Below are positions 3,358-42,234 of a stretch of DNA of 42,234 bases, one piece after another (within the stretch, counting starts at the first letter, position 1; each line of letters opens with the position of its first letter). The position numbers and the translations under genes were made by a program. The stretch comes from Campylobacteraceae bacterium (GTDB taxonomy: Bacteria > Campylobacterota > Campylobacteria > Campylobacterales > Arcobacteraceae): the NCBI GenBank assembly GCA_013215915.1, contig JABSON010000003.1, positions 1 through 42,234 on the forward strand, written 5' to 3'. Below the pieces are notes generated by a model. That model did not search any database and was not told where the DNA came from. It worked only from the letters and a program-made list of their open reading frames with translations.

Positions 3358-3714
3358 ATGAACGAATCAAAGACTTTGATTCGTTCTTGCTGTGAAGATA
3401 TCTCACACTTAGAACAAATCAATAAAAAACTACCCTCATGTGATGAAATACTATTTTTATCTACTATATTAAAAGCAATTGCTGATCCTACAAGACTTAA
3501 AATTCTTCTTGCACTTTTAGAATATGAAATATGCGTAGGTGAGATGGTTAATATATTGAAACTTCCCCAAACTAATGTATCTCATCAATTAAAGATTTTA
3601 AGAGAAAAAGGACTTGTTTCTTTTAAAAAAGATAAAAAGATGTCTTTTTATTATATTTGTAATGATGAAATAAAAGATTTATTAATAGATGTTTTAAAAA
3701 TAAATAAGGTTTAG
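3358..3714 (+). CDS. ArsR/SmtB-family metalloregulatory transcriptional repressor
   Basis: ALADPTRLKILLALLEYEICVGEMVNILKLPQTNVSHQLKILREKGLV is the winged-HTH signature of ArsR/SmtB. Cys residues sit in the N-terminal arm (SCCED, PSCDE) plus one alpha3 Cys (ICVG). No C-terminal His/Asp alpha5 site is present. Confidence 0.85.
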   Translation: MNESKTLIRSCCEDISHLEQINKKLPSCDEILFLSTILKAIADPTRLKILLALLEYEICVGEMVNILKLPQTNVSHQLKILREKGLVSFKKDKKMSFYYICNDEIKDLLIDVLKINKV

Positions 3715-3716
3715 AT

Positions 3717-5891
3717 ATGTCAAAAGAAAACATAAAATTAAATATATCTGGTATGACCTGTGTTAACTGTTCAAATGGAATTGAAAAAATAAGCAATAAA
3801 ATGAAAGGCCTTAGTTTTTCAAAGGTTTCATTTACTTCAAATTCAGGTGAGTTTATAATTGATACAGAGCACTTAAGCAAACATAAACTAATAAATAAAA
3901 TAAAAGCTTTAGGTTATGAAGTTGTAGAAGATTTAGAAGAACTTGAAAAAAATAAGATAAAAGCATATGTAAAATTAAAAAATACATTTTTTATCTCTTT
4001 AACACTTACATCTCTAATGTTTTATTTTATGTTTTTTCCAAAAGAGAATAATACATATATCTTATTTCTCCTAGCATCAATAGTTCAGTTCTATTGTGGA
4101 TTGAGATTTTATACCCTCTCATATAAGGCATTATCTCATAATAACTATGATATGAATGTATTAGTAGCACTTGGAACTTCTGCTGCTTATTTTTATTCTG
4201 CTTTTGTAGTAATAAGCCCAACTCTATTCCCAGAAAATTTAAGATTTGTATATTTTGATGGTGCTGCTGTTATTATTACTTTTATTTTATTAGGAAGATT
4301 ATTAGAAGAGAGATCACGTGCAAAAGCTAGTGATTTTTTAAAGAGTTTAATGAACTTAGCTCCTTTAAAAGCTAATATTATAAAAGATAATGGTGATATA
4401 AAGCAAATACCTGCAAAAGATTTAGAAATAGGCGACATAGTATTAATCAAACAAGGTGAACAAGTATCAGCTGATTGTTTAATTATAAAAGGTTATGCTG
4501 ATATTAATGCTTCTATGATTACAGGTGAATCTATGCCTGTATATAAAACTATAGGTGATGAAATAATTGCTGGAACTATTAATACTAATGGTGTAATTGA
4601 AGCAAAAGTTCTAAAAAAATCAAGTGATACAAAAATCTCAAAAATAATTGACTTATTATCACTTGCTCAAAGTAAACAAATGCCAATAGCTAGGTTTGCA
4701 GATAAAGTTGCAAATATATTTGTACCCTTAGTAATAGGAATATCTATATTAACTTTTTTAGTATGGTACTTTATAGTAGGTAATACCTTAATGGCTATAT
4801 TAGCTTCAATCTCAGTTTTAATTATATCTTGTCCTTGTGCGCTGGGTCTTGCTACTCCAATAGCAATTGTAAGTTCAGTTGCAGCTGGAGCAAAAGAAGG
4901 AATATTAATTAAAAATCCTGAAGTTCTAGAAATTATAAAAGATATTAGATATGCAGTATTTGATAAAACAGGTACTTTAACTAAGGGTGAGATTAAAGTT
5001 AAAGATATGGATATAGATGAAAAATATTTAAATCTTATTTATGCATTAGAGAAAGTAAATGAACATGCTATTTCAAAAGCAATCATTAACTATATAGATG
5101 ATAAGAATATTAAAGAAGAGAGTATAGAACTAGAAGAGTTTAAAAATATTCCAGGACGAGGATTAAGTGCTAAATATAATAATGAATTAGTATTAATTGG
5201 AAATATAGCCTTATTAGAAGAGAATAATATAAGTATTGCCCAGGTGAAAAAAGAGTTTTATCTTAATACTCTTAACAAAGGAAATGTATCTGTATTAGTA
5301 TCTTATAAAAATGAATGTAAGGGCTCAATTTCATTAGAAGATGAAATTAAAGAGGGTGCGATAGAGTTAATAAAAGCTTTAAATGCTAAAAATATTCAAA
5401 CTATTCTATTAACAGGTGATAATAAATTAACTGCTAAAAATATAGCAAATACATTAGGTATTAAAACCATATATTCAGAAGTATTACCAAATGAAAAATA
5501 TGATCTAATTAAAAGTTTACAAAATAATTCTAAGATTATGTTTGTAGGTGATGGAGTGAATGATTCACCTTCTATTAAACAAGCTGATATAGGAATAACA
5601 TTAAACTCAGGATCTGACATCACAAAAGATGCAGGTGATATTATATTAATGAATAATGATATAGCTTGCGTATTAAAAAGTATAAACTTATCTTTTAAAA
5701 CAATGAAAATAATTAAACAAAATCTATTTTGGGCATTCTTCTATAATGCTTTAGGAATACCATTAGCAGCTGGAATATTTTATTCGAGTTTTGGGATTAT
5801 GTTAAGTCCTATGTATGCAGGAATAGCTATGAGTTTTTCTTCTGTTATTGTTGTTTTGAATTCTTTGAGATTAAAGATGTATAGTTTGTAA
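3717..5891 (+). CDS. copA: Cu(I)-translocating P1B-type ATPase
   Basis: N-terminal HMA domain (GMTCVNC), TM6 CPCALGLATP, phosphorylation site DKTGTLT and hinge GDGVNDSP. The TM7/8 motif YN...P-x6-MSFSS-x5-N is characteristic of the Cu+/Ag+ P1B-1 subgroup. Confidence 0.9.
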   Translation: MSKENIKLNISGMTCVNCSNGIEKISNKMKGLSFSKVSFTSNSGEFIIDTEHLSKHKLINKIKALGYEVVEDLEELEKNKIKAYVKLKNTFFISLTLTSLMFYFMFFPKENNTYILFLLASIVQFYCGLRFYTLSYKALSHNNYDMNVLVALGTSAAYFYSAFVVISPTLFPENLRFVYFDGAAVIITFILLGRLLEERSRAKASDFLKSLMNLAPLKANIIKDNGDIKQIPAKDLEIGDIVLIKQGEQVSADCLIIKGYADINASMITGESMPVYKTIGDEIIAGTINTNGVIEAKVLKKSSDTKISKIIDLLSLAQSKQMPIARFADKVANIFVPLVIGISILTFLVWYFIVGNTLMAILASISVLIISCPCALGLATPIAIVSSVAAGAKEGILIKNPEVLEIIKDIRYAVFDKTGTLTKGEIKVKDMDIDEKYLNLIYALEKVNEHAISKAIINYIDDKNIKEESIELEEFKNIPGRGLSAKYNNELVLIGNIALLEENNISIAQVKKEFYLNTLNKGNVSVLVSYKNECKGSISLEDEIKEGAIELIKALNAKNIQTILLTGDNKLTAKNIANTLGIKTIYSEVLPNEKYDLIKSLQNNSKIMFVGDGVNDSPSIKQADIGITLNSGSDITKDAGDIILMNNDIACVLKSINLSFKTMKIIKQNLFWAFFYNALGIPLAAGIFYSSFGIMLSPMYAGIAMSFSSVIVVLNSLRLKMYSL

Positions 5892-37829: not shown

Positions 37830-39824
37830 ATGTTACAGTTTAACTTTTTTTTAAAGTTGTTAAAAGAATCTTTTAGAGATTTGATACCTATTGTTATAGT
37901 AATATTATTTTTCCAATTAGCTATTATACAATCAGTGCCATCAGATTGGATGACTACTACTATTGGATTAGTAATTGTTGGAATTGGTTTGGCTATTTTT
38001 TTACAAGGTCTAGAAATTGGAATATTTCCAGTAGGTGAAGGATTAGCACGTGATTTTGCAAAATCTGGATGGACTACTTGGATTCTAATTTTTGGTTTTT
38101 TAATTGGTTTTGGTACTACTATTGCTGAACCTGCTTTAGCAGTTATTGCTGATAAAGCTGCTTCTATTTCAGCAGGAAGAATTGATGCTACAGTCTTAAG
38201 ATTAGTAGTTGCGGCTTCTGTTGGATTTGCGATACTTGTTGGTGTTCATAGAATTATTAAAGGTTATGCAATTCACTATTATATTATCTCTGGATATGTA
38301 ATTGTTGTAAGTATTACTTTTTTTGCACCTTCTGAAATTATTGGACTTGCTTACGATTTAGGTGGAGTTACGACCTCTACTGTTACAGTTCCTCTAGTTG
38401 CTGCTTTGGGAATTGGACTTGCTACTTCAATTAAAGGAAGAAATCCTATTATTGATGGATTTGGTTTAATTGCTTTTGCTTCATTAACTCCAATGATTTT
38501 TGTACAAATTTATGGAATTGCAGTATATAATCTTGTTGATGCAAAAGAAGTTGCTCAAGTTCTTGTGCAAGCAAAAGTTTCATCTTCTTTAGATATAAGT
38601 CTAAATAGTTTAATAGCTGGACTTATTGATGTTGTTAAAGATGTTGTTCCTATTTTAGCAATTATTATGTTTTTCCAATATGCAGTACTTAAAAAAAGAA
38701 TTCAGAATCTTAAAACAGTTATTTTTGGTTTTGGACTTGTTATTTTAGGTTTATATGCATTTATTTTAGGTTTAGAGTTAGGTTTATTTAAACTTGGTGA
38801 AACTATGGCTTATGAATTAACTCAAAATTCATCTGTTTATATAATTTATGCTTTTGCATTTTGTATCGGTTTCTCAACTACAATGGCAGAACCTGCTTTA
38901 ATGGCAATTGCAAAAAAAGCAAAAGATATATCAGATGGCAAAATTAATGATTTTGCTTTAAGATTATTTGTAGCCTTTGGAGTTGCATTTGGTATTGCTT
39001 TAGGTGCATTCAGAATTGTTGATGGTGGACATATTCATTACTACATTATTGTAGGATATTTATGTGTTATTATTTTAACTTTTATTGCTCCTAAGTATAT
39101 TATTCCTATTGCTTATGATTCAGGTGGAGTTACAACTTCTACAATTACTGTTCCACTAGTCGCAGCACTTGGTATTGGATTAGCTTCTAATATTCCTGGA
39201 CGATCTCCCTTAATTGATGGATTTGGTTTAATTGCTTTTGCTTCATTATTCCCAATGATTACGGTTATGCTTTATGGTATACTCTCTGAGAAACTAGGTG
39301 TTAAATCTGATACAGAAATCGAAGCTGCTAATATTCTAAGAGATACTTTAGTTGATGCTGAAAATATGGATCTTGCAACTATTAATATTGATGGAAGCGA
39401 TAGAAGACATTCTCTTCCTATGGACTTTTCAGTTGTTGTAATAATAGTTCCAATGGATAAAAAAATTGATGCAATTGCAGCTGCTCATAAAGCTGGAGCT
39501 TCTGGTGTAACTATTCTTAAAGCTGATGGAATGGGACTTGGGAAAATGGATAACTTTTATAGAACTTCATTTGATGCAAATGATGCTTTATTAATGTTTA
39601 TTTTACCTCAAAGTTTAGTAAATCCAGTTATTAAATCAATTATACATTCACTTCATATTACAACTACAGGAAAAGGTATAGCATTTGCTTTTCCTCTAAG
39701 TCATATGAAAGGGATTTCTTTATCAAGACATGAGATTTTTGAAAATAGAAAAGATCATAAAAACCCAGTGAATAATCCTACTAAAGAAGAAGAAAAAGAT
39801 GATGAAAGAAATAAAAAATCTTGA
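37830..39824 (+). CDS. Fusion protein: tandem DUF1538 membrane domains plus a C-terminal PII (GlnB)-like domain
   Basis: Residues about 10-232 and 262-486 are clear paralogous repeats. Both contain TT[IM]AEPAL, HYYII.GY, AYD.GGVTTST.TVPLVAALGIGLA and IDGFGLIAFASL. Residues about 532-631 follow the PII beta-alpha-beta pattern: VVVIIVP...IDAIAAAHKAGASGVTILKADGMG...ALLMFILP...TTTGKGIAFAFPLSHMKG. Confidence 0.75.
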   Translation: MLQFNFFLKLLKESFRDLIPIVIVILFFQLAIIQSVPSDWMTTTIGLVIVGIGLAIFLQGLEIGIFPVGEGLARDFAKSGWTTWILIFGFLIGFGTTIAEPALAVIADKAASISAGRIDATVLRLVVAASVGFAILVGVHRIIKGYAIHYYIISGYVIVVSITFFAPSEIIGLAYDLGGVTTSTVTVPLVAALGIGLATSIKGRNPIIDGFGLIAFASLTPMIFVQIYGIAVYNLVDAKEVAQVLVQAKVSSSLDISLNSLIAGLIDVVKDVVPILAIIMFFQYAVLKKRIQNLKTVIFGFGLVILGLYAFILGLELGLFKLGETMAYELTQNSSVYIIYAFAFCIGFSTTMAEPALMAIAKKAKDISDGKINDFALRLFVAFGVAFGIALGAFRIVDGGHIHYYIIVGYLCVIILTFIAPKYIIPIAYDSGGVTTSTITVPLVAALGIGLASNIPGRSPLIDGFGLIAFASLFPMITVMLYGILSEKLGVKSDTEIEAANILRDTLVDAENMDLATINIDGSDRRHSLPMDFSVVVIIVPMDKKIDAIAAAHKAGASGVTILKADGMGLGKMDNFYRTSFDANDALLMFILPQSLVNPVIKSIIHSLHITTTGKGIAFAFPLSHMKGISLSRHEIFENRKDHKNPVNNPTKEEEKDDERNKKS

Positions 39825-40140
39825 TGAAGTAAATAATATAATTAATACAGGGAAACCTGTATTATTATATTTCTCAGGTGAAAACTGTTCACTATGCCAC
39901 GCTCTTAAACCTAAAATAGAAAAGTCTTTTAAAGACGATCTTCCAAAACTTGAAATATTAGAAATAAAAACTGATGTACATAAAGAACTTACAAGCCATT
40001 TTACGGTATTTTCTTTACCAACTATACTTGTTTATTTTGACTCAAAAGAGTTCAAAAGAATTGGCAGAAATATATCTGTTCCAATTTTTACACAAGAAAT
40101 TAAAAGAATTTATGATTTATATGAAGAAGCTAATCTTTAG
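39799..40140 (+). CDS. Thioredoxin-fold protein with CxxC (CSLC) motif
   Basis: 113 aa. PVLLYFSGENCSLCHALKP, then the cis-Pro-like VFSLPTILVY. It overlaps the upstream gene by 26 nt. Confidence 0.65.
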   Translation: MMKEIKNLDEVNNIINTGKPVLLYFSGENCSLCHALKPKIEKSFKDDLPKLEILEIKTDVHKELTSHFTVFSLPTILVYFDSKEFKRIGRNISVPIFTQEIKRIYDLYEEANL

Positions 40141-40164
40141 TTTTCTTCAAATATGTGAGGAAAT

Positions 40165-40584
40165 ATGAAAAGAACTTTATTAATATTTTTAATTGTTTTT
40201 ATTTTAATGCAATTTATACAATTAGATGAAACAAACCCCAATCAAAATAAAAGTGATGAAATACAGGCACCTATTGAAATTATGACAATGTTTAACAATT
40301 CTTGTTATGCTTGCCATTCAAATCAAACAATATGGCCTATTTATAGTTCAATTGCACCATTTTCATGGATAATTAATTCGCATGTTAAAAATGGCAGAAA
40401 AGCTTTGGATTTTACATCTTGGGAGAAGTATTCTGAAGAAGATAAAAAACTTAAATTAAAAGCAATTTATAGAACTGTATATGCAGCTATGCCTTTAGCT
40501 TCATATGTATCTTTACATGAAGAAGCAGCCTTGAGCAAAAAACAAAGAGAAAAAATTAGAGCTTGGACAGGAGTTAGAAGATAA
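40165..40584 (+). CDS. Haem-binding-domain protein (single CxxCH, N-terminal membrane anchor)
   Basis: N-terminal TM/signal LLIFLIVFILMQFI. CYACHSNQTIWPIYSSIAPFSWIINSHVKNGRKALDFTSWE matches the Haem_bd-type domain pattern as I recall it. Confidence 0.65.
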   Translation: MKRTLLIFLIVFILMQFIQLDETNPNQNKSDEIQAPIEIMTMFNNSCYACHSNQTIWPIYSSIAPFSWIINSHVKNGRKALDFTSWEKYSEEDKKLKLKAIYRTVYAAMPLASYVSLHEEAALSKKQREKIRAWTGVRR

Positions 40585-42234
40585 TGATAAATCTTGAAGT
40601 AAAAGAATTATTAGAAGATAGAACTAAGCTTTTAACTATAACTTATTTTAAATTACAAAAATTATTTGAAAAAAAGTATGGAAAAAATACTGTAGTTTTA
40701 ATGGAGATAGGAACGTTTTTTGAAGTATATGAAGTAAATAATGATTCCTTACAAATTGGTAAAGCTAAAGAAATTGCAGAACTTCTTAATATTCAATTAA
40801 CAAGAAAAAATAAATCTATTTTAGAAAACTCACAAGAAAATCCAATTATGGCAGGAGTTCCTGCAATTGCGTTTGATAAACATTTAGCCAGAATTATAGG
40901 TGAGCAAAAATATACTGTTGTCATTATTAGACAAAGAGGAACTCCCCCTAATGTAAATAGATACTTGGACACAGTTGTTTCTCCTGGAACAAATTTTGAT
41001 TTTATAATTGATCAAGATGAAAATAATATTACATCTTTATGTGTTGATATTAATAAAGGTATTTATTCTGTTGGATATTCTGCTATTGATGTTACAACTG
41101 GAAAGTGTTATTATAATGAAGTTCATGGAACTAGTGAAGATAAATATTATGCTTTAGATGAGTGTTTTAATTATATGAATATGCATAAAACAAATGAAGT
41201 AATATTGAGTTTTTGTGATAAAAGTATAAATCAAAAAGAAATTATTGAATACATAGAACTAAGCCTAAAAACTTTTCATATTTCATCTTTTAGACCTAAA
41301 ATTGTTTATCAAAATGAATTATTTAAAAATGTATTTAATATTGAATCTTTACTTACTTCAATAGAGCATCTTGATATGGAAAGAGTTCCTTTAAGTACTG
41401 AGTGTTTAGCTATATTAATTGATTTTGTGATATCTCATGATGATAAAATTATCCAAAAACTTTCAACACCTATTAAATTAGATGTCTCAAAATATATTTA
41501 CTTAGGTAATAACGCATTAGAGCAGTTAAATATAATTGAAAGTTCTCATAATCCTTCTTTAATTAAATTAATTAATAATACTTCAACTGCTATGGGAAAA
41601 AGACTATTAAAAGAGAGATTATCTCATCCTGTGAAAGATGAAAAAGAATTATTAAGAAGATATGCTTTATCTAAAGATTTATATGATTACCATGCACCAA
41701 TTGAGAGTGAATTAGCTAATATTTATGATATAGAAAGATTAACAAGAAGAATTAAATTAACAAGACTTCATCCTTTTGAATTAAATTATTTATATGATTC
41801 ACTTTTATCAATAAAAGAAGTTGTAAAGTTTATGGAAAATTATAAGTTTTTTAGCTCGCCTTGTACATCTGCTGAACTTGCTATTTTTATTGAATCAATT
41901 GAATCTACATTTGATTTAGAGATAAGTGGTAAGTTTATGCTTAAAGATATTGACCATAATATGGTTCATCATGGAATTAATTCACAAATTGATGAATTAA
42001 TGTCTGAGAATGAAAGATTAAAAGATAAACTTGAACTTATAAAAGATCATATTTTATCATTTATGAAAAGCAAAGATAAATCATTTGTAAGTATAAATAG
42101 ATTAGATAAAGAAGGATTTTTCTTAGGCCTTACAAAAAGTAGATTTAATTTAGTTAAAGATGAATTAATGAATTCACATCTAATTTTAGATGATGACTTA
42201 CTTTTATTTAAAGATTTTAAAATTAAAATCCAAA
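40584..42234 (+). CDS. mutS: MutS1-type DNA mismatch-repair protein (partial; continues past the window end)
   Basis: Not in the track because it has no stop inside the window. ATG at 40584 in an ATGA overlap with the upstream stop. Domain I-like EIGTFFEVYEVNND...LTRKNK...PIMAGVP. The later segment TSTAMGKRLLKERLSHPVKDEKELLRRY...IYDIERLTRRI matches the MutS core/clamp motifs. Confidence 0.8.
   Translation, partial: MINLEVKELLEDRTKLLTITYFKLQKLFEKKYGKNTVVLMEIGTFFEVYEVNNDSLQIGKAKEIAELLNIQLTRKNKSILENSQENPIMAGVPAIAFDKHLARIIGEQKYTVVIIRQRGTPPNVNRYLDTVVSPGTNFDFIIDQDENNITSLCVDINKGIYSVGYSAIDVTTGKCYYNEVHGTSEDKYYALDECFNYMNMHKTNEVILSFCDKSINQKEIIEYIELSLKTFHISSFRPKIVYQNELFKNVFNIESLLTSIEHLDMERVPLSTECLAILIDFVISHDDKIIQKLSTPIKLDVSKYIYLGNNALEQLNIIESSHNPSLIKLINNTSTAMGKRLLKERLSHPVKDEKELLRRYALSKDLYDYHAPIESELANIYDIERLTRRIKLTRLHPFELNYLYDSLLSIKEVVKFMENYKFFSSPCTSAELAIFIESIESTFDLEISGKFMLKDIDHNMVHHGINSQIDELMSENERLKDKLELIKDHILSFMKSKDKSFVSINRLDKEGFFLGLTKSRFNLVKDELMNSHLILDDDLLLFKDFKIKIQ

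Follow-up and report, generated by a model that had tools for sequence, protein, structure and literature searches.

A PII-like domain in one chain with both halves of a UmpAB-type transporter in Arcobacteraceae: a probable tethered regulator of cation/proton antiport

Why should a bacterium encode a PII-like signalling domain and both halves of a membrane transporter in a single polypeptide? Few signalling proteins are as widespread as the PII proteins, and the transporters known to be their targets all have to do with nitrogen or inorganic carbon. The question is raised by a stretch of 42,234 nucleotides (nt), here called the window, from a Campylobacteraceae bacterium of the Arcobacteraceae (assembly GCA_013215915.1, contig JABSON010000003.1), in which one open reading frame (ORF) encodes two DUF1538 repeats followed by a PII-like domain. 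The architecture is that of both halves of a UmpAB-type transporter joined to a PII-fold domain, and for this architecture and a regulatory role of the added domain, taken together, our confidence is high. We think it probable, with less assurance, that the fusion exchanges monovalent cations for protons under the control of a tethered PII-like regulator; for the monovalent cation/proton substrate considered by itself the balance of evidence is about even.

The layout of the fusion is clear from several directions. Two DUF1538 (PF07556) stretches are recognised by Pfam (E 6e-137; 454.2 bits, with the gathering score at 22.6), as is a P-II domain (PF00543) at residues 536–628 (29.3 bits against a cut-off of 25), and the two DUF1538 repeats share 54% identity across 215 ungapped residues (E 3e-75). 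A first AlphaFold run, on a shallow alignment of Arcobacteraceae only, reached a predicted local distance difference test score (pLDDT) of 59.8 and was discarded; the second model, from 87 diverse sequences, has a mean pLDDT of 85.9 and a predicted template modelling score (pTM) of 0.76. The original prediction, which was made from the DNA letters, had described a single DUF1538–DUF1538–PII ORF of 664 residues; the ORF list and Pfam confirm it, and its domain coordinates agree with those in Table 1 to within a few codons. The charged tail that it placed after the PII-like domain is indeed there, but is conserved neither within the Arcobacteraceae nor in Sulfurimonas, whose versions stop directly after the PII domain. 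The linker that precedes the PII domain is conserved in the Arcobacteraceae (consensus of 53 sequences). It has no counterpart in the split forms described below, in which the protein comprising both DUF1538 halves (AB) ends near this point and the PII gene begins MKF.

That the C-terminal domain adopts a PII fold, as had been proposed, is borne out by Pfam, by a family profile, by the β-α-β-β-α-β order of the AlphaFold model and by Foldseek. In the model β1 spans residues 533–541, α1 542–554, β2 561–564, β3 585–593, α2 594–608 and β4 617–622, with a B-loop TTTGKG and a T-loop of low confidence at about 565–584; pLDDT in the core (residues 533–622) is 83–94. Foldseek matched the domain to SbtB, CPII, plant and bacterial PII, GlnK and CutA structures in the PDB with probability 1.00 and target-normalised TM-scores of 0.5–0.81. 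A profile of 35 DUF1538-linked PII-like sequences, both fused and free-standing, gave 45 distinct PII matches in the PDB, the best being a methanogen NifI-type PII (E 1.2e-8), with archaeal GlnB/GlnK at about 1e-4 and SbtB at about 6e-3. The ferredoxin-like PII fold seen by AlphaFold and Foldseek thus removes the objection, foreseen with the original prediction, that structure prediction might reveal no such fold.

The residues by which PII proteins recognise their effectors are another matter. Aligned with Escherichia coli GlnB, the domain keeps G24, G27, G35, G37, G87, G89 and T29, and has leucine for R38, glycine for Q39, a gap at K58, G-K-G-I for G-D-G-K90 and aspartate for Y51, the site of uridylylation. 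With the canonical effector residues lost, the domain is PII-like rather than a canonical GlnB or GlnK, and its ligand cannot be assumed. To judge from the alignment, the ligand probably lies outside the canonical ATP/2-oxoglutarate mode, and nucleotide sensing by this domain must be regarded as unproven, given the loss of these residues. The domain also has no cysteine and no C-terminal redox loop of the CGPxGC type.

What the fused proteins do share is a distinctive T-loop. When 77 PII-like sequences are aligned, the motif DNFYR stands out as conserved in the fused clade, and the free-standing relatives have KKTFFGL instead. The Y-R of this motif (window 39558–39569, in the region of residues 577–580) aligns with Y46-R47 of GlnB. 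The position of R47, which we take to be that of the residue inserted by GlnK to plug AmtB, offers a lead rather than a result. The loop had been described as short; it is shorter than that of E. coli GlnB, but by only about 5 residues.

How widespread is the fusion, and how old? The best 120 homologues are all 643–709 residues long with 79–99% identity, the named ones coming from Arcobacter, Halarcobacter, Malaciobacter, Poseidonibacter and Marinarcus. A search of 1.84 billion cluster representatives returned 3277 relatives, many of them of about 500 residues and consisting of two fused halves with no PII. Gene context was surveyed with a 10-sequence query against one genome per GTDB species, giving 80 loci to which two more were added, 82 in all (L numbers below denote loci, P numbers proteins); ORFs at these loci, which lie in Campylobacterota, Gammaproteobacteria, Nitrospirales, Scalindua and Bacteroidota, were mapped with phmmer. 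A PII-like gene or domain directly follows the DUF1538 part at 74 of the 82. Three arrangements account for these: separate A, B and PII genes (9 loci, for example in Shewanella, Thiohalobacter, Parabeggiatoa, Nitrospirales, Scalindua and Cyclobacteriaceae); a fused AB gene and a separate PII-like gene of about 116 residues, often with overlapping stop and start codons (42 loci, including Halomonas, Marinobacter, Thioalkalivibrio, Ectothiorhodospira, Sulfurovum and some Sulfurimonadaceae); and the triple fusion (23 independent loci, in Arcobacteraceae, Sulfurimonas and one metagenome-assembled genome (MAG) labelled Sulfurospirillum). This survey supports the earlier suggestion that elsewhere the DUF1538 genes are usually separate and followed by a small PII-like gene.

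In a neighbour-joining tree of the AB region the triple fusions form one clade, nested among the Campylobacterota forms with fused AB and separate PII; the gammaproteobacterial fused-AB forms with a PII gene, and the three-gene forms, branch further out. The clade is deep, its loci sharing 55–88% identity. Homologue lengths, the distribution of loci and the tree together imply that the fusion is ancient and lineage-wide. Distant lineages also contain independent triple fusions with divergent PII-like ends (P0225, P0267, P0244). In one MAG, Sulfurimonadaceae BB10, a triple fusion (L017) coexists with a paralogue that has fused AB and separate PII and CBS genes (L024), implying that the two forms are paralogous systems and not simple replacements of one another.

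Clustering of all ORFs within 3.5 kb of the DUF1538 unit brought out a fourth, widely conserved gene of the module that the original prediction had overlooked. At 42 loci the PII-like gene has immediately behind it, in the same orientation, a gene for a protein of about 130 residues that Pfam recognises as a CBS pair (examples among L023–L082 are L059:7872-8273, L056:7827-8219 and L027:7849-8238), in taxa ranging from Campylobacterota to Nitrospirales, Scalindua and Bacteroidota. All 9 three-gene loci have PII-like and CBS genes after the B gene. A CBS-pair profile had no match in the window or in any triple-fusion locus examined. Since the CBS gene is conserved at split loci and has no counterpart at the triple fusions, the module is best described as A-B-PII-CBS, with fusion of the PII domain coinciding with loss of CBS. 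The place of PII at the C-terminus is taken in Woeseiaceae and Halieaceae by a fused cytidylate-kinase-like P-loop domain (L047:1143-3395, L049:6046-8298, L052:5881-8157 and protein P0141), implying that the regulatory end can be swapped. By family, every such end belongs to a nucleotide-binding type, consistent with an exchangeable regulator of that kind.

Two unusual forms turned up in the same survey. In a Tepidimonas MAG (L053:3623-7472) a 910-residue protein has an N-terminal extension of about 400 residues before its two DUF1538 halves, and downstream of it two PII-like genes flank the CBS gene. Protein P0268 (661 residues) has an RsmD-like methyltransferase (Cons_hypoth95) N-terminal to two DUF1538 domains, either through a gene-call artefact or as a real fusion.

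What, then, does the membrane part do? DUF1538 had been taken to be uncharacterised, with the proviso that a function already assigned to it might explain the module. Such a function has been published, though in one heterologous study: the DUF1538 pair UmpAB of Halomonas zhaodongensis was described in 2017 as a Na+(Li+,K+)/H+ antiporter (PMC5484666). Co-expressed by themselves, the two genes rescue E. coli KNabc on NaCl, on LiCl and at pH 8; pH-dependent antiport was measured in vesicles; and UmpA and UmpB co-immunoprecipitate and are both required. That report mentions no PII or CBS partner for UmpAB. As UmpAB is active without any downstream gene, the PII and CBS proteins are accessory. The NCBIfam models for UmpA and UmpB (NF041627 and NF041628) match both halves of the fusion. 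The antiport was measured only for the Halomonas proteins; for the fused form we infer it by analogy. DUF1538 has also been picked out by machine learning on genomes as a predictor of optimal growth pH (PMC13255231).

Conservation and the structural model point in the same direction. The family motifs A-E-P and D-x-G-G-V-T/A occur in each half of the fusion, and E100, P101, D176, E354, P355 and D430 are invariant or nearly so among homologues down to about 25% identity, D430 being invariant and E354/P355 nearly invariant. The conserved residues lie where the model breaks its helices, at 99–100, 181–185, 353–354 and 435–439, with pLDDT above 90. Four membrane carboxylates on discontinuous helices would fit a role in ion/proton coupling. 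In a positive-inside comparison of equivalent loops, made by eye and bearing on whether the repeats lie parallel or inverted, the two repeats differ strongly in the first loop (QSVPSD versus KKRIQNLK), but three later loops are positive in both.

From these features a mechanism can be proposed. The two homologous halves would together make the transport unit, most likely a (Na+/K+/Li+)/H+ antiporter as for the split Halomonas UmpAB, each half supplying two broken helices with invariant carboxylates (A-E-P and D-x-G-G-V-T-T). The PII-like domain would be a cytoplasmic regulatory module, which elsewhere is mostly a separate subunit encoded just downstream with the CBS-pair protein. In one Campylobacterota lineage, Arcobacteraceae with Sulfurimonadaceae, the PII gene appears to have been fused to the transporter and the CBS gene lost, and the tethered PII may there replace the PII and CBS pair. 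By analogy with GlnK/AmtB and SbtB/SbtA, the PII domains could trimerise beneath the transporter, their T-loops, with the conserved DNFYR, opening or plugging its cytoplasmic side when a small ligand binds. In those pairs a PII-type protein plugs or gates its cognate transporter with its T-loop. Substrate, gating mechanism, trimeric state and ligand response are thus what we infer from known systems. The comparison with AmtB/GlnK and SbtA/SbtB, which the original prediction had drawn, is a reasonable one in view of the linkage found between the PII-like gene and the transporter. Natural AmtB–GlnK fusions, moreover, are treated as known and give a precedent for a PII protein tethered to its transporter (PMC4009401).

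Several observations weigh against this assignment. Scored alone, the N-terminal half reaches 285.3 bits on the NCBIfam UmpA model and the C-terminal half 250.3 bits on UmpB, so that neither attains its equivalog cut-off (490 and 500, respectively); the whole protein exceeds 490 on UmpA (509.5 bits) only because it adds up the two repeats. On the same models the fusion halves are outscored by the three-gene forms of Shewanella and Thiohalobacter (333–385 bits), which suggests that the latter are closer to UmpAB. Phmmer, a profile search against PDB sequences and Foldseek found no solved relative of the membrane part, and the transport mechanism therefore cannot be read from a template; no Pfam family besides DUF1538 matched this region, and no homology to Amt or SbtA was found. 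EAAT and MATE transporters appeared as Foldseek candidates for the membrane part and were set aside as not credible (TM-score about 0.15, probability no higher than 0.38). In the PII-like domain, R38, Q39, K58 and K90 of GlnB are not kept (HMMER alignment). The antiporter assignment itself goes back to a single heterologous study (PMC5484666), and the same KNabc screen gave antiport activity for several unrelated families. Finally, the well-studied PII–transporter pairs all handle carbon or nitrogen substrates and not alkali cations.

The last two points lead directly to the main rival, which is that the physiological substrate is a different one: a carbon- or nitrogen-related solute, such as bicarbonate or another small anion or metabolite, with transport gated by PII as in SbtA/SbtB, CPII-linked systems or AmtB/GlnK, and with the antiport of UmpAB a secondary activity brought out by over-expression. 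This rival draws its support from the SbtB/CPII-like fold, since the closest structural matches of the PII domain are to these bicarbonate-linked proteins, and from the many chemolithoautotrophs among the hosts (Sulfurimonas, Sulfurovum, Thioalkalivibrio, Halothiobacillus, Guyparkeria, Thiohalobacter, Scalindua and Nitrospirales). DUF1538 is equally common, however, in heterotrophs such as Halomonas, Marinobacter, Shewanella, Idiomarina and Arcobacter, and the vesicle assays demonstrated cation/H+ antiport by UmpAB directly. The four conserved membrane carboxylates are also better suited to cation/proton coupling than to the transport of an anion. Nor does gene context point to carbon or nitrogen assimilation: the recurrent neighbours of DUF1538 loci encode universal stress proteins (USPs), GGDEF/EAL proteins, histidine kinases, methyl-accepting chemotaxis proteins (MCPs) and a K+ channel, and no recurrent carboxysome, RuBisCO, carbonic anhydrase or nitrogen-assimilation genes were found near the loci. 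At the autotroph loci L040, L073, L065 and L070 in particular there are USP, HD-GYP, GGDEF and deacetylase genes and no carboxysome, RuBisCO or carbonic anhydrase genes. We regard a carbon or nitrogen solute as unlikely.

A second rival concerns the genes downstream. The fusion is followed in the window by genes for a thioredoxin-like protein with a CSLC motif and a membrane-anchored Haem_bd protein, and it had been suggested that these redox-type partners belong with the fusion in one module. In such a module the redox state of thiols or haem might, for example, control the transporter, as happens with SbtB. The spacing is certainly tight. The thioredoxin-like ORF overlaps the fusion by 26 nt, as previously stated and as the ORF list confirms, and the Haem_bd ORF follows after a gap of 24 nt; its junction with mutS is TAATG, a 1-nt overlap at position 40584, and not the ATGA described earlier. 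Co-transcription of the three genes in the window is plausible. The order leuA–fusion–thioredoxin-like–Haem_bd–mutS recurs in Halarcobacter bivalviorum, Arcobacter nitrofigilis and another complete Arcobacter genome, with different outer flanks, and both genes follow the fusion in the window and at L001, L005, L006, L025, L083 and L084. For PII-like proteins there is also a precedent in SbtB, which is regulated by a redox-sensitive R-loop (PMC9974498).

Against such a module, the association proves to be narrow. Both genes are missing from four Arcobacteraceae MAG loci (L007–L010), from all triple fusions of the Sulfurimonadaceae type and from all 50-odd split loci; where a fusion stands without them it is followed instead by genes for MCPs, DUF520, an iron–sulphur protein, GGDEF/EAL proteins or histidine kinases. 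The thioredoxin-like gene is also found after the fusion at L003, and at L004, L007–L021 and L078 there is none. At L003 an opposite-strand gene for a 762-residue protein separates it from the Haem_bd gene, which has moved away with mutS and lies directly before mutS, 2.6 kb from the thioredoxin-like gene. All named members of the 141 close Haem_bd homologues are from Arcobacteraceae or unclassified Campylobacterota MAGs. Two functionally unrelated genes, leuA and mutS, also belong to the conserved block. There are two cysteines in the fusion (345 and 412), both in the membrane part and so outside the PII domain, and neither is conserved even within the Arcobacteraceae. Judged from their sequences, the thioredoxin-like protein would be cytoplasmic and the Haem_bd protein periplasmic and anchored; the former scores 41.9 on TIGR01068 against a cut-off of 96.8, and so is not a TrxA equivalog. 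The two are lineage-specific neighbours, confined to core Arcobacteraceae genera, and stand outside the conserved module; redox control of the transporter through them is improbable.

The weakest alternative, that three genes have been joined into one ORF spuriously or only recently, for instance by a sequencing error or a strain-specific loss of stop codons, has nothing to commend it beyond the occurrence of split forms elsewhere, and can practically be dismissed in view of the uniform length of the best 120 homologues, the single ORF at 23 independent loci in one deep clade, the conserved linker and T-loop motifs peculiar to that clade and the fused and split paralogues that coexist in one MAG.

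Upstream of the fusion lies leuA (36128–37681), followed by a hairpin with a T-run that was read directly from the sequence (Table 1); a consensus terminator scan missed it because it has too few G-C pairs. The fusion has the ribosome-binding site AAGGAG 5 nt before its ATG, and this site, together with the likely terminator after leuA, implies that the transcription unit probably starts at the fusion. A promoter scan was uninformative in this AT-rich DNA (23 matches against 21 expected). Within the thioredoxin-like coding region, 19 nt past the fusion stop, a perfect hairpin with a 9-bp stem (window 39843–39864; TAATACAGG/GAAA/CCTGTATTA) is followed by a T-rich stretch, and could be a chance occurrence in AT-rich DNA or a partial attenuator. 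MutS domains are identified by a Pfam match in the syntenic gene.

Other neighbouring genes can be noted briefly. Five loci (L009, at 3574-5235, and L006, L007, L010 and L069) have a gene for a K+ channel (Ion_trans + TrkA_N + TrkA_C) a short way upstream of DUF1538, placed in the maps of L007 and L010 after leuA and before the fusion, which hints, if weakly, at a setting of cation homeostasis. Further upstream in the window (33239–35874) a 680-residue ORF is followed, with a 1-nt overlap, by a gene for a 197-residue protein whose phosphatidylserine-decarboxylase-like match is weak and which is much smaller than an ordinary Psd; at L083 the same pair appears as FtsH and then a PS_Dcarbxylase-like gene. 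A PycTM (Pycsar effector-like) membrane gene near the Thiohalobacter DUF1538 locus (L065:8363-8881) is probably unrelated.

Table 1. Features of the fusion gene and its surroundings, with positions in the window.
Feature	Position	Strand	Description	Evidence
Fusion ORF	37830..39824	+	DUF1538 A + DUF1538 B + PII-like, 664 residues	ORF list, Pfam, AlphaFold
DUF1538 repeat 1	37848..38534	+	UmpA-like half, residues 7–235; A-E100-P101 and D176-x-GGVTTS	NCBIfam, conservation, model
Linker between repeats	38535..38600	+	Residues 236–257	pLDDT about 56, no regular structure, poorly conserved
DUF1538 repeat 2	38601..39299	+	UmpB-like half, residues 258–490; A-E354-P355 and D430-S-GGVTTS	NCBIfam, repeat identity, conservation
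Linker from membrane part to PII domain	39300..39425	+	Predicted helix 494–513	Model secondary structure, consensus of 53 Arcobacteraceae sequences
PII-like domain	39426..39719	+	Residues 533–630	Pfam P-II, family profile against PDB, Foldseek
T-loop of PII-like domain	39522..39581	+	GMGLGKMDNFYRTSFDAND	Low-pLDDT loop between β2 and β3; alignment of 77 PII-like sequences
Charged C-terminal tail	39720..39821	+	Residues 631–664, not conserved	Variable in Arcobacteraceae consensus; missing in Sulfurimonas homologues
Hairpin and T-run after leuA stop	37680..37702	+	Likely terminator	Read directly from sequence
Thioredoxin-like protein	39799..40140	+	113 residues, CSLC, no signal peptide	Pfam Thioredoxin, 38.8 bits against 23.5
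Haem_bd (PF14376) protein	40165..40584	+	139 residues, CYACH, N-terminal hydrophobic anchor	Pfam, 132.9 bits against 27
mutS, 5' part	40584..42234	+	Runs off the window end	550-codon open frame, 81% identical to Halarcobacter bivalviorum MutS

How new is all this? The architecture is visible in public annotation, where the protein appears as 'DUF1538 domain-containing protein' or, at the Joint Genome Institute (JGI), as 'nitrogen regulatory protein PII'; the membrane family has a published function; and AmtB–GlnK is a known precedent for tethering. It is not a radical surprise, and its exotic redox element falls away. In the searchable literature, however, where 6 papers mention DUF1538 and none of them PII, we found nothing that links the family with PII or CBS proteins, and what emerges is a possible new class of PII target, for which the fusion is a useful natural single-chain system. 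We suggest, tentatively and at somewhat less than an even chance, that DUF1538 proteins, as yet undescribed in this role, join Amt and SbtA as a third class of transporter under PII control, through which PII signalling would reach Na+/K+/H+ (pH and salt) homeostasis; that in most phyla there are two sensors, PII-like and CBS-pair; that in Arcobacteraceae and Sulfurimonadaceae a tethered PII with a re-designed DNFYR T-loop replaces both; and that the ligand would differ from ATP/2-oxoglutarate.

If a PII protein is indeed locked to a putative family of cation/proton antiporters, ion and pH homeostasis would be a new output of PII-type signalling. Across phyla the PII-like module is tied to the transporter in three ways: as an adjacent gene, as a gene accompanied by that for a CBS protein, and as a covalent domain. 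The last of these is convenient, with its fixed stoichiometry and one gene to express, and suits both structural work on a membrane fold without a solved relative and the search for a ligand.

The fusion can be compared with several known systems. Among its relatives are the loci with fused AB, PII and CBS genes in Halomonas, Marinobacter, Thioalkalivibrio, Sulfurovum and others, whose modules are orthologous or paralogous to those of the window, with AB identity of 44–67% and PII identity of 25–36%. In the window's clade, in contrast, PII is joined on by a new linker of about 40 residues, KKTFFGL in the T-loop has given way to DNFYR and there is no longer a CBS-pair gene. With UmpAB the fusion shares homologous membrane domains, its N-terminal half being UmpA-like and its C-terminal half UmpB-like, as well as two homologous halves that work together and the same acidic motifs conserved throughout the family. 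The difference is that in the fusion both halves and a PII regulator make up one polypeptide.

The NifI-type and archaeal GlnB/GlnK proteins (PDB 9p1x, 3o8w and 3ncp) give the best profile matches to the PII-like domain, with E values of 1.2e-8 to 1e-4 over the full domain; they themselves are free-standing trimers with ATP/ADP and 2-oxoglutarate as ligands and with nitrogenase or ammonium uptake under their control. The likeness to GlnK/AmtB and SbtB/SbtA lies in a PII-fold protein that adjoins its transporter gene, and is here fused to it, in a pairing conserved across phyla, with a T-loop of comparable length that carries a conserved motif in the fused clade. These pairs differ, however, in that the DUF1538 membrane part is unrelated to Amt or SbtA, and in that the fusion has neither the canonical ATP/2-oxoglutarate residues nor a redox loop of the CGPxGC type. 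For DUF1538 the presumed substrate is an alkali cation and proton, and the split loci add a CBS-pair protein as a further conserved partner.

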